A program made the position numbers. 64,000 bases of DNA, taken from NCBI RefSeq assembly GCF_054482595.1, contig NZ_CM137008.1; one strand, given 5' to 3'. This document shows, piece by piece, positions 27,001 to 30,000 of this stretch (position 1 is its first letter; every line of letters starts with the position of its first letter).

Positions 27001-30000
27001 TGACATGTGATTTTTCCTTTTATCGTACAAATAAATTTGGAATTAATGAACTGTACTATAAAATCAAATTAACTGGAGCAAAGATAAGCGACATTCATGT
27101 CTCTATATCACATATTGTTGTTGATAACAGCGTTCAACCCGAAGAGTCAGTTTCTTTCAGTTATGAGTCAATTATATGGGAGCATTGTTCCGCTGGCACT
27201 AGTGCATACAGTTTATGGGAAGATCGTCTTTTTTAAAAACATATGGGATTATTATAATGGCTAACAATATTTTACACTCTTCAACATCAGACAGTGAAAG
27301 CAAAAATACAAGCACTGACAGTACGTTATTTAATGAAAAATTCCCATTTCAACTAAGACAAGATTTCGCATCAAGAATAACAGAAGATGAAAGTGATTTT
27401 TTTAAATGGAAAAAAATAAGAGAGTTGGCATTTGTGAGCAATCATAAAGAATGGAATAAATATGACTTATTAATTTTAAAATCTGTTAATGAAATCAACA
27501 TTCATTTGTCCAGCACTCCATACTTTCAGCCGTTGGATTGGTATATAATAAAAGCCATGCTCTGGACTGAAAACGATGCGGAAAATACTTCTCAGTGGAA
27601 TGGGTATCCATTACAAATTGGTCGTTTTCGGAAAGATAAAGCGATGCCAGCCTTAATCTCTGGAGAAAAATCTACAGCCCTTGTTACCCCACCACAATGG
27701 AGAAACAAAGCATTCAATGGGTTAAAAGATCCAGAAAGAAATTACTGGGCAAAAGAACAAATAACTGGCTCTCCAGAAGAGAATATCAAAGCAGCAATTA
27801 CTTACTTAATGATGAAACTTTCTAATACAAAGGAAGAATCAACTATCGATCAATATGACTCAACTCTATATAGCGCCATTGTCCAAAAAGGCGATTTGGC
27901 TGACAACATCAGAAAAGAGAGAAAAACGACCATACCTAACTTAACGAAAAACAATCCTGGAAAAAATCTCGATAAAATACACCCGGGAGATATTTTATAT
28001 TATCAAAAAGCATCCATGAAAGTAATAATTACTGGATGGAAACCTATCACAATAAAAAATGTAGCGATGAATTATAATGGTGGTGGCGATCCCAAGTATG
28101 CAATAAAACTTCAGTTCGTTTATACATTACTCACAAAAAACAGAGTATTATGAGAATGCGAAAAATAACAATTATTCTACTGCTGACATTCTCATGTACA
28201 AAAGGTCTGGCATTTGACATTTCCATGTCTAAAGAATGTAGTGGTGTTGATGAAGTTGAATTTATTGATTGTGTTAAAAACTCATTTATTATGAGCACTA
28301 TTACACTTAAAAAAGCAGAAGCAAATATAAAAGAGAAAATTCAAAAATGGAATAGTGATGAGGACGAAGCAATAAGAAAAGAAGCAGTTATTTCTTTAAA
28401 AAGACTAGAGTCTTCTAATAGGGAATTTATACGTTACAGATTTGCTCAATGCTCTTTTACTCTAACCTGGGGGGCCAGAGTAGGGCGACTGGCATTCTCT
28501 CGGCTATATCCATGCTATACTGAGTTAAACAAAATAAGAGCCATGCAACTAAACAATGCTTACATTTCTGACTTTCAAAATCCAGATGAGATATCCAGCA
28601 AATGATTATTATAAATTTAAGATTAACATTACTATTTATACTGGCCACATTTACATATTCAGTACAATCAGACGAATTCGATGATCAAACCACTTACACG
28701 CAATACCGTTATTTTTCCACTGCTATACCGGAAGATATACGTAGATTTATGTTCTACGTAGATTATTGCTTTGTAGATTTAGCATTCGATATCGAAACTG
28801 ACTCAATGACAGCTAAGAATGATATTATTAATGAATGTACTCCATTAAAAGAAAGAAACAAGACATTAAAAGAAAAATATAAAAAAAATGAAGAGATAAT
28901 AGCAATTCTTTCCATTGCAGATGATACTATTTTAATTTATGAAGAATTAAAAAAATAACTCACATGCAATACACTGGTAATATATATTATAACTTTATAA
29001 AAACAATCATATTTACATTATAGAAATACTCAACTCCTGTTTGCTGCCACCCTAAACTACAGGCGGCAGCATAACAATAACGATTACTGGAATCGACTCA
29101 CCAAGTCTTTCACCATCGATACATATGCTTTTTGTTTCAAATTAAACAGTTGCGCTTCCGTAACATGGTCATTTGATAGTTCTTTATTGCTCGTTTTTGT
29201 AATTCCAGCCGGCGGAAAAATTACTCTCGATTCATAATTCACCGGCGACCAGGTAGCCCACTCACCTGTTGCCACATCCACCAGCGTGAAACGTACCAGG
29301 TAGCGCAGGGAGATAGCGTCAGTGAGTTTTTCATTTTTATAGTCGGACCATACTGTTGATTTCAGCGCAGAGTCATATTTTCCTGTCTGCAACATATCCT
29401 GGTAAACAATAATCGCTTTCTGATGTCCTTTTGCAGCCACAAAACGCAGTGCCTGCATCCAGTTCATATTCTCAGCACGGGCAACATCCTCGTTCTCATT
29501 TTTATCTTTGTTTTTGTTACAAGTCAGAGGCTTTTGCCTGTCCGGGATACCAGAGAATGTGGAAACAGTATAATATTTTCGCATCTCCTCCTGCATAATG
29601 GTTTCCGGTGCGCGGTTGCCGGATTGAACAAGTATTACAGGAGAATTAAGGGGAACGCGGAACTCATCTCCATCAAGCGCTGCTTGAATATCCTCTTCGG
29701 ATACGGCCAGAGTGGTTTCATTACCGAATAAATCTTTGTCTGTCAGTTGCTGGGGAGTGTTTTTATTAATATTACTTTGTGTGACTTGAGCTTTTTTCTT
29801 CTTTTCATCAATAGAAGATTCAGAGGCACATCCTGCAAGCAGCGAGAATAACACACATATGCAACAAAGCTTTTTTGAATTCATAATTGGACACTCCCTC
29901 GCCTGTCATAATGATTAGAATATTTAGCATTGATAACGGACTCTAATTATATACCCCACTTAAATAATAACAAACAAAATCAATTTGAAATATACATTCA

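Follow-up and report, generated by a model that had tools for sequence, protein, structure and literature searches.

The closest described relatives of the locus studied here are two enterobacterial type VI secretion system (T6SS) modules, each published as one effector with one immunity gene. In enterohemorrhagic Escherichia coli (EHEC), the effector Etse4 is toxic solely when directed to the periplasm, and co-expression of the DUF1311 gene etsi4, whose product was described as structurally similar to LprI, rescues E. coli from periplasmic Etse4 (PMC12981562). In Salmonella Dublin, SED_RS06235 and SED_RS06230 ('LysM/LysMI') of Salmonella pathogenicity island 19 (SPI-19) gave the results expected of an effector and its immunity protein when tested by competition (PMC8867033). 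We analyzed a 64,000-nucleotide stretch of an E. coli chromosome (NCBI RefSeq assembly GCF_054482595.1, contig NZ_CM137008.1; hereafter the window), in which the distal (aspV) end of a T6SS cluster carries, on the plus strand, tssM, a VasL-domain gene, hcp, a gene for a 298-residue effector and two small open reading frames, ORF1 and ORF2. ORF2 is a third gene that both published accounts overlooked. With moderate confidence, we propose that ORF1 and ORF2 make up a cassette of two genes for periplasmic immunity to the upstream effector, in which ORF2 would serve as an auxiliary second component.

The window and EHEC share the same locus, situated after hcp1 at the aspV end, and ORF1 is 99.3% identical to Etsi4 (ECs_0213) of O157:H7 Sakai. 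The Salmonella module resembles it in that a homologous effector with LysM and transglycosylase-like parts is followed by a 146-residue LprI-domain protein with a reported Sec/signal peptidase I signal peptide (PMC8867033). However, that paper calls the module bicistronic, whereas a Salmonella SPI-19 locus with an exact match to the deletion primer of that study has a third, ORF2-like gene with a rearranged 3' end. An initial annotation of the window had placed two consecutive small ORFs behind the candidate effector gene, and both are present (Table 1). The stop codon of the effector gene overlaps the start codon of ORF1 as ATGA, as does the stop codon of ORF1 with the start codon of ORF2.

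The case for a two-gene unit is carried by the distribution of the pair. Fetched loci were scanned with hidden Markov models (HMMs) of the effector, ORF1 and ORF2 families. ORF2 homologues are present in at least nine enterobacterial genera, in several of them full-length at 22-39% identity. At each of the 13 distinct positions examined (in E. coli, E. albertii, Citrobacter youngae, Atlantibacter, Superficieibacter, Yokenella and the metagenomic contigs L008 and L019/L020), the ORF2 homologue lay right behind an ORF1 homologue, with gaps of -4 to +9 nucleotides. The same order was found in a Hafnia locus and in the Salmonella SPI-19 locus. The effectors fall into four subtypes. The pair that comes first after an effector is always of the ORF1 and ORF2 subtypes that correspond to it, and several loci continue with extra ORF1-ORF2 pairs of other subtypes. 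Such arrays behind a single effector hold four pairs in L019/L020 and two each in C. youngae (L021) and Atlantibacter (L022), with 124-319 nucleotides between successive pairs. A megablast search with the four-pair array of L019 gave no match in complete E. coli genomes, and thus such arrays were not seen in E. coli. The pairwise distance matrices of ORF1 and ORF2 were correlated (Mantel r 0.946, p 1e-4), although tight linkage by itself yields co-divergence and the correlation is therefore no proof of functional interaction. The ratio of nonsynonymous to synonymous substitution rates (dN/dS) for ORF2, 0.10-0.26, equals the range for ORF1, and this holds in copies without an adjacent effector; in E. 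albertii the effector is fragmented and ORF1 and ORF2 are both intact. On the evidence of these comparisons, ORF1 and ORF2 are inherited and stacked as a pair. Since the second gene is a constant companion of the antidote gene, both appear to belong to a single protection unit.

ORF2 is, as its conservation indicates, a real gene. In family alignments P43, C56, C79, K92, Y93 and L103 are invariant, and the pair formed by its two cysteines is conserved together with the signal peptides. Signal peptides were judged heuristically by a K/R start, a hydrophobic core and a cleavage motif of small residues. By this measure the ORF2 N-terminus is basic and has a hydrophobic core (best 10-residue Kyte-Doolittle mean 2.57) and the cleavage motif VQS|DE, whereas that of ORF1 is basic with a core of 2.55 on the same scale and the motif GLA|FD. 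This layout recurred in all 26 ORF1 and ORF2 family members inspected, including all 13 ORF1-type proteins, which lends support to the initial annotation of both products as secreted. The two proteins had also been called dissimilar, and HHalign comparison of the two families agrees, as only the signal peptides align, at 2% probability; ORF2 is therefore not a diverged DUF1311 protein. Mature ORF2 of the window is an acidic protein of about 95 residues (isoelectric point 4.5, charge -8), for which an AlphaFold2 model predicts a small, all-helical bundle with a predicted local distance difference test score (pLDDT) of 83.8. The structural neighbors of the model are generic three-helix bundles, and the sole significant match in AFDB50 is ORF2 itself. 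Searches of Pfam, NCBIfam and the PDB with the single ORF2 sequence returned no match, and a whole-library phmmer search found three true distant clusters only. Two further phmmer matches, to repeat or C2-like proteins, were spurious on inspection of the sequences, and membership in TssO was rejected because the lone Pfam match (1.6e-4), among eight family members, was treated as chance. As a candidate cognate T6SS immunity protein, ORF2 has adjacency, a putative signal peptide and subtype-matched co-divergence, and damaged copies of it coexist with intact ORF1; any biochemical activity ascribed to it is putative.

The sequence data support ORF1 as Etsi4, the immunity protein of this effector. 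It is adjacent to the effector gene with overlapping start and stop codons and has a putative signal peptide, and neutralization is known from the literature on the nearly identical EHEC protein. The Prokaryotic Genome Annotation Pipeline (PGAP), which starts the gene at 28156 rather than at 28150 as here, names the product DUF1311/LprI. Against Pfam PF07007 (DUF1311/LprI), the window protein gave a weak match (independent E-value 0.0026, 18.6 bits, model positions 13-106 of 106). Across the family, E-values were at or below 1e-3 in five of nine members and at or below 0.1 in seven of nine, the best being 1.1e-10, and a Burkholderiaceae homologue (37% identity) has a precomputed PF07007 match. 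The LprI assignment, offered as an impression in the initial annotation, is thus weak for ORF1 of the window alone and convincing at the level of the family. A search of PDB sequences with the ORF1 profile gave no significant match. Four cysteines had been counted in ORF1; four lie in the mature part (C30, C41, C101 and C122) and one more in the signal peptide. C41, C101 and C122 are invariant in the family and C30 is kept in eight of nine members, so that ORF1 combines conserved cysteines with the heuristically judged signal peptide of an LprI-type protein. Two other assignments were rejected. The string LTFSC fits a loose lipobox, but its cysteine is not conserved in the family while signal peptidase I-type sites are, which argues against a lipoprotein; the NCBIfam score for UmoC was 22 bits against a cut-off of 120.

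LprI of Mycobacterium tuberculosis is comparable to ORF1 in belonging to the same domain family, in being secreted and in opposing a lysozyme-like enzyme. It differs in being a lipoprotein that inhibits host lysozyme, whereas inhibition by ORF1 is deduced from genetic rescue. LprI-domain orphan immunity genes have also been reported from hcp islands of Pantoea (PMC9796082). Neither LprI of M. tuberculosis nor the Pantoea genes have been described with an ORF2-like partner.

The effector was expected from the initial annotation to target the cell wall, and the published periplasmic toxicity and our model both agree with this. Translation from the ATG at 27257 is in accord with homologues and with the published etse4ori numbering. 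Single-sequence searches returned nothing informative, but a profile of five homologues matched solved LysM domains (E 4e-5), and one homologue matched Pfam LysM (PF01476). The structure model has a lysozyme/lytic transglycosylase-like fold with an inserted LysM domain and matches Tse3 (4luq) and Tge2 (4kt3), and the motif M-x-W-T-E, which includes Glu105, is invariant in a five-member alignment. Based on the LysM profile matches, the fold match and this motif, the effector is predicted to be a peptidoglycan glycosidase of the lysozyme-like type that carries a LysM insertion, and Glu105 would be its candidate catalytic acid given the lysozyme-like fold. The protein is basic (isoelectric point 9.2-9.5). 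The Tge/Tgi systems (Tse3-Tsi3 and Tge2-Tgi2) similarly combine peptidoglycan glycoside hydrolase effectors with periplasmic neutralization. They differ in showing no sequence relationship, in having immunity proteins of other families and in having a single immunity gene per effector.

A TTA-to-TAA change at nucleotides 220-222 interrupts the effector gene of EHEC (PMC12981562). The window retains TTA at the corresponding position, 27476-27478, so the effector here is the intact ancestral form and, by this sequence comparison, the uninterrupted form of etse4a plus etse4. RefSeq genomes identical to the window, such as that of strain XH990, have this 298-codon gene (L001, 6558-7454) annotated by PGAP as a 219-nucleotide 'incomplete' pseudogene and a separate 198-residue hypothetical protein, apparently a carry-over from the split O157:H7 gene models. 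A few genomes name the effector 'peptidoglycan-binding protein'.

We propose the following model for the cassette. A basic lysozyme/lytic transglycosylase-like enzyme with an inserted LysM domain, encoded beside hcp1, would act on the cell wall from the periplasm. ORF1 would be exported by Sec to the same compartment, where two disulfides probably stabilize it, and would act as the primary inhibitor, neutralizing the effector presumably through direct binding. ORF2, an unrelated and mostly acidic helical protein facing a basic effector (isoelectric point 9.2), is translationally coupled to ORF1 and co-inherited with it. Its most likely role would be auxiliary, as a second-site binder of the effector or as a binder and stabilizer of ORF1. 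In this role it would strengthen or broaden protection upon T6SS delivery and would be dispensable when ORF1 is over-expressed.

Immunity provided by two proteins has precedents. Tde5 of Pseudomonas aeruginosa is neutralized independently by the unrelated proteins Tdi5a and Tdi5b, which act at different surfaces and either of which suffices (PMC13392607). As in the window, two structurally unrelated proteins are encoded directly 3' of one T6SS toxin, and the sufficiency of either Tdi5 protein would fit rescue by Etsi4 alone. In contrast, Tde5 acts as a DNase in the cytoplasm, and its binding has been shown for Tdi5a as well as for Tdi5b, whereas here the toxin is a predicted periplasmic peptidoglycan hydrolase and binding by ORF2 is putative. 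Aeromonas Tle1 requires two immunity proteins together (PMC7245790), while TseL has two near-identical immunity proteins of which either is enough (PMC9927574). None of these three systems shows what is seen for ORF1 and ORF2, a pair that persists and repeats without its toxin.

Several observations weigh against the proposed cassette in addition to the effect of linkage on the distance correlation. The generic three-helix fold of ORF2 gives no functional lead. In O157:H7 Sakai, a tract of seven adenines in place of the eight in the window frameshifts ORF2 (ECs_0212, a coding sequence of 297 nucleotides) to 98 residues, with loss of the conserved C-terminal helix, and in the Salmonella SPI-19 locus an intact effector gene is accompanied by an ORF2 with a rearranged 3' end. 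Furthermore, the HMM scan found no ORF2 homologue in the Burkholderiaceae locus with effector and LprI genes, and the hcp islands of Pantoea were reported to contain LprI genes only (PMC9796082). The same observations bear on whether ORF1 and ORF2 are both needed, for example as a heterodimer, against the full-length effector delivered by the T6SS. Constant pairing, translational coupling, co-repetition and equal selective constraint would all fit such an obligate pair, for which Tle1(AH), with its need for Tli1 and Tli2, is a model (PMC7245790). The published rescue by Etsi4, moreover, involved over-expression and only a C-terminal 198-residue fragment of the effector, and thus did not probe the full-length delivered toxin. 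Nevertheless, ORF1 co-expression alone reportedly rescues, EHEC and a Salmonella lineage have damaged ORF2, the latter beside an intact effector gene, and LprI-only loci occur in Burkholderiaceae and Pantoea (PMC9796082). Strict co-requirement is therefore doubtful, and we regard it as unlikely. It was one of two alternatives put forward in the initial annotation. The other, by which ORF2 would be an orphan immunity gene whose own, unrelated effector was displaced, does not stand. ORF1 and ORF2 are indeed unrelated in sequence, and orphan immunity genes commonly gather at T6SS ends (PMC9796082), but all 13 ORF2 homologues lie behind an ORF1-like gene in the same type of hcp-effector locus and none beside another type of effector. 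In addition, the subtypes of ORF1 and ORF2 correspond to those of the effector in all four cases, and what arrays repeat is the pair. This constant position, together with co-divergence and co-repetition, excludes the orphan origin, to which we assign very little probability.

Two further explanations place ORF2 outside immunity. It might be a linked periplasmic protein that neutralizes no toxin, aiding the export, folding or turnover of ORF1 or doing something unrelated, and kept by co-transcription. This would accord with the absence of a family or fold clue and with its seeming dispensability in some lineages. Yet purifying selection on ORF2 equals that on ORF1 even in copies that lack an effector, and subtype-specific co-divergence fits a component that bears specificity rather than a generic helper; we consider this role improbable. 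That ORF2 is a chance ORF in AT-rich DNA is scarcely credible. The region has merely 26-35% G+C, and PGAP does not call ORF2 in EDL933, but a chance frame would not account for full-length homologues across several genera in which Pro, Cys and Tyr positions do not vary, for the low dN/dS values or for the confident AlphaFold2 model. We retain the two-gene immunity cassette with an auxiliary ORF2. A stronger version of it, which we put forward only tentatively, is that ORF2 might be the founder of a new family of periplasmic T6SS immunity components that acts with an LprI-type inhibitor, at a second surface of the toxin or in a complex with the LprI protein, as a two-protein unit.

Copies of these genes in other genomes show several kinds of damage. 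O157:H7 (L002/L003) has lost both the effector (TTA to TAA, at window position 27477) and ORF2 (A8 to A7), and its ORF1 is intact but for one V-to-L change at 28255; the 2026 Etse4 paper discusses the effector lesion only and not that of ORF2 (PMC12981562). In a Salmonella enterica SPI-19 locus (L025, 4554-6110), the region beyond the first pair is scrambled and holds inverted fragments of an effector C-terminus and an ORF2 C-terminus, followed by 5'-truncated remnants of a second pair. The ORF1-like gene of L025 loses the frame of its ATG over a poly-A run within the signal-peptide region. In L014 (5128-5559), the corresponding second ORF1-like gene was called from an internal Met only, giving 107 residues without a signal peptide. 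Together with the A8 tract of ORF2, these lesions suggest that homopolymer slippage may be a recurrent route to switching off or losing these AT-rich genes, although some of these cases may be sequencing error. In E. coli PS2Canimalfeces12 (L004, 4288-5551), IS1 adjoins a 5'-truncated ORF1, of which just the 3'-terminal third is left beside yafT together with an intact ORF2; neither the T6SS cluster nor the effector is present between yafV and the IS1 junction. In a Burkholderiaceae metagenome contig (L012, 1274-1999), the effector and LprI pair is followed by a 241-residue DUF1353 protein with a signal-peptide-like N-terminus, perhaps an alternative third component that this lineage has.

The features of the locus are listed in Table 1, and the cassette is flanked by yafT, tRNA-Asp (aspV), dnaQ and rnhA. 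A yafT-like gene (PF25851 in homologues) occupies the same place in E. albertii, Hafnia and the metagenomic contig L008, which indicates a conserved boundary of this type of T6SS. The hcp product is called an Hcp family T6SS effector in identical genomes and carries PF05638 in syntenic homologues. The 2.4 kb from hcp to ORF2 were found at 95% identity or higher in 364 of 5426 complete E. coli genomes, single-copy and chromosomal every time. The block of hcp, effector, ORF1 and ORF2 (window 26600-29000) has 26-37% G+C, compared with 55-58% in the T6SS core genes, and this fits an exchangeable cargo module that brings its own hcp. An Rfam scan matched tRNA-Asp only, and promoter and terminator consensus scans gave scores that did not exceed those of shuffled sequence. 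At 26713, close to the 3' end of the VasL-domain gene, the window has one additional G relative to O157:H7 Sakai, which alters the C-terminus, and PGAP marks this gene as frameshifted in XH990.

Table 1. Features at the distal end of the T6SS cluster, in window coordinates.
Feature	Position	Strand	Remarks
tssM	21846-25370	+	T6SS cluster
VasL-domain gene	25291-26730	+	
hcp (Hcp1, 159 residues)	26757-27236	+	directly 5' of effector gene; presumed effector carrier
Effector gene, 298 residues	27257-28153	+	intact form of EHEC Etse4 (etse4ori)
Glu105 codon, M-x-W-T-E motif	27569-27571	+	invariant column in five-member effector alignment
LysM insertion in effector, about residues 203-250	27863-28006	+	approximate limits
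ORF1, 151 residues (Etsi4, LprI/DUF1311 type)	28150-28605	+	99.3% identity to Sakai ECs_0213
ORF2, 118 residues	28602-28958	+	
A8 homopolymer within ORF2	28881-28888	+	A7 in O157:H7 Sakai (pairwise DNA alignments)
yafT-like lipoprotein gene	29084-29884	-	convergent with cassette; island end, before tRNA-Asp and dnaQ
tRNA-Asp (aspV)	30212-30288		

The effector and ORF1 are already published, including the cell-wall target, the family of ORF1 and its function in immunity, and our results support these accounts. For the effector and ORF1, the window adds an intact, ancestral copy of a locus that is disrupted in O157:H7. The third gene, conserved beside the immunity gene across genera and stacked with it in arrays, belongs to a family that had not been described, and its constant two-gene cassette with an LprI-type immunity protein is a modestly interesting lead. 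If the two proteins do act as a unit, enterobacteria would exchange and stack two-gene units, not single genes, in their orphan-immunity arrays. Immunity through two dissimilar, genetically coupled proteins was described just recently, for one cytoplasmic DNase. Should ORF2 help to protect the cell, the locus studied here would provide a widespread example of such immunity in the periplasm, and tests of ORF1 alone may understate or misassign specificity among the E. coli, Salmonella and Citrobacter strains that compete in the gut.
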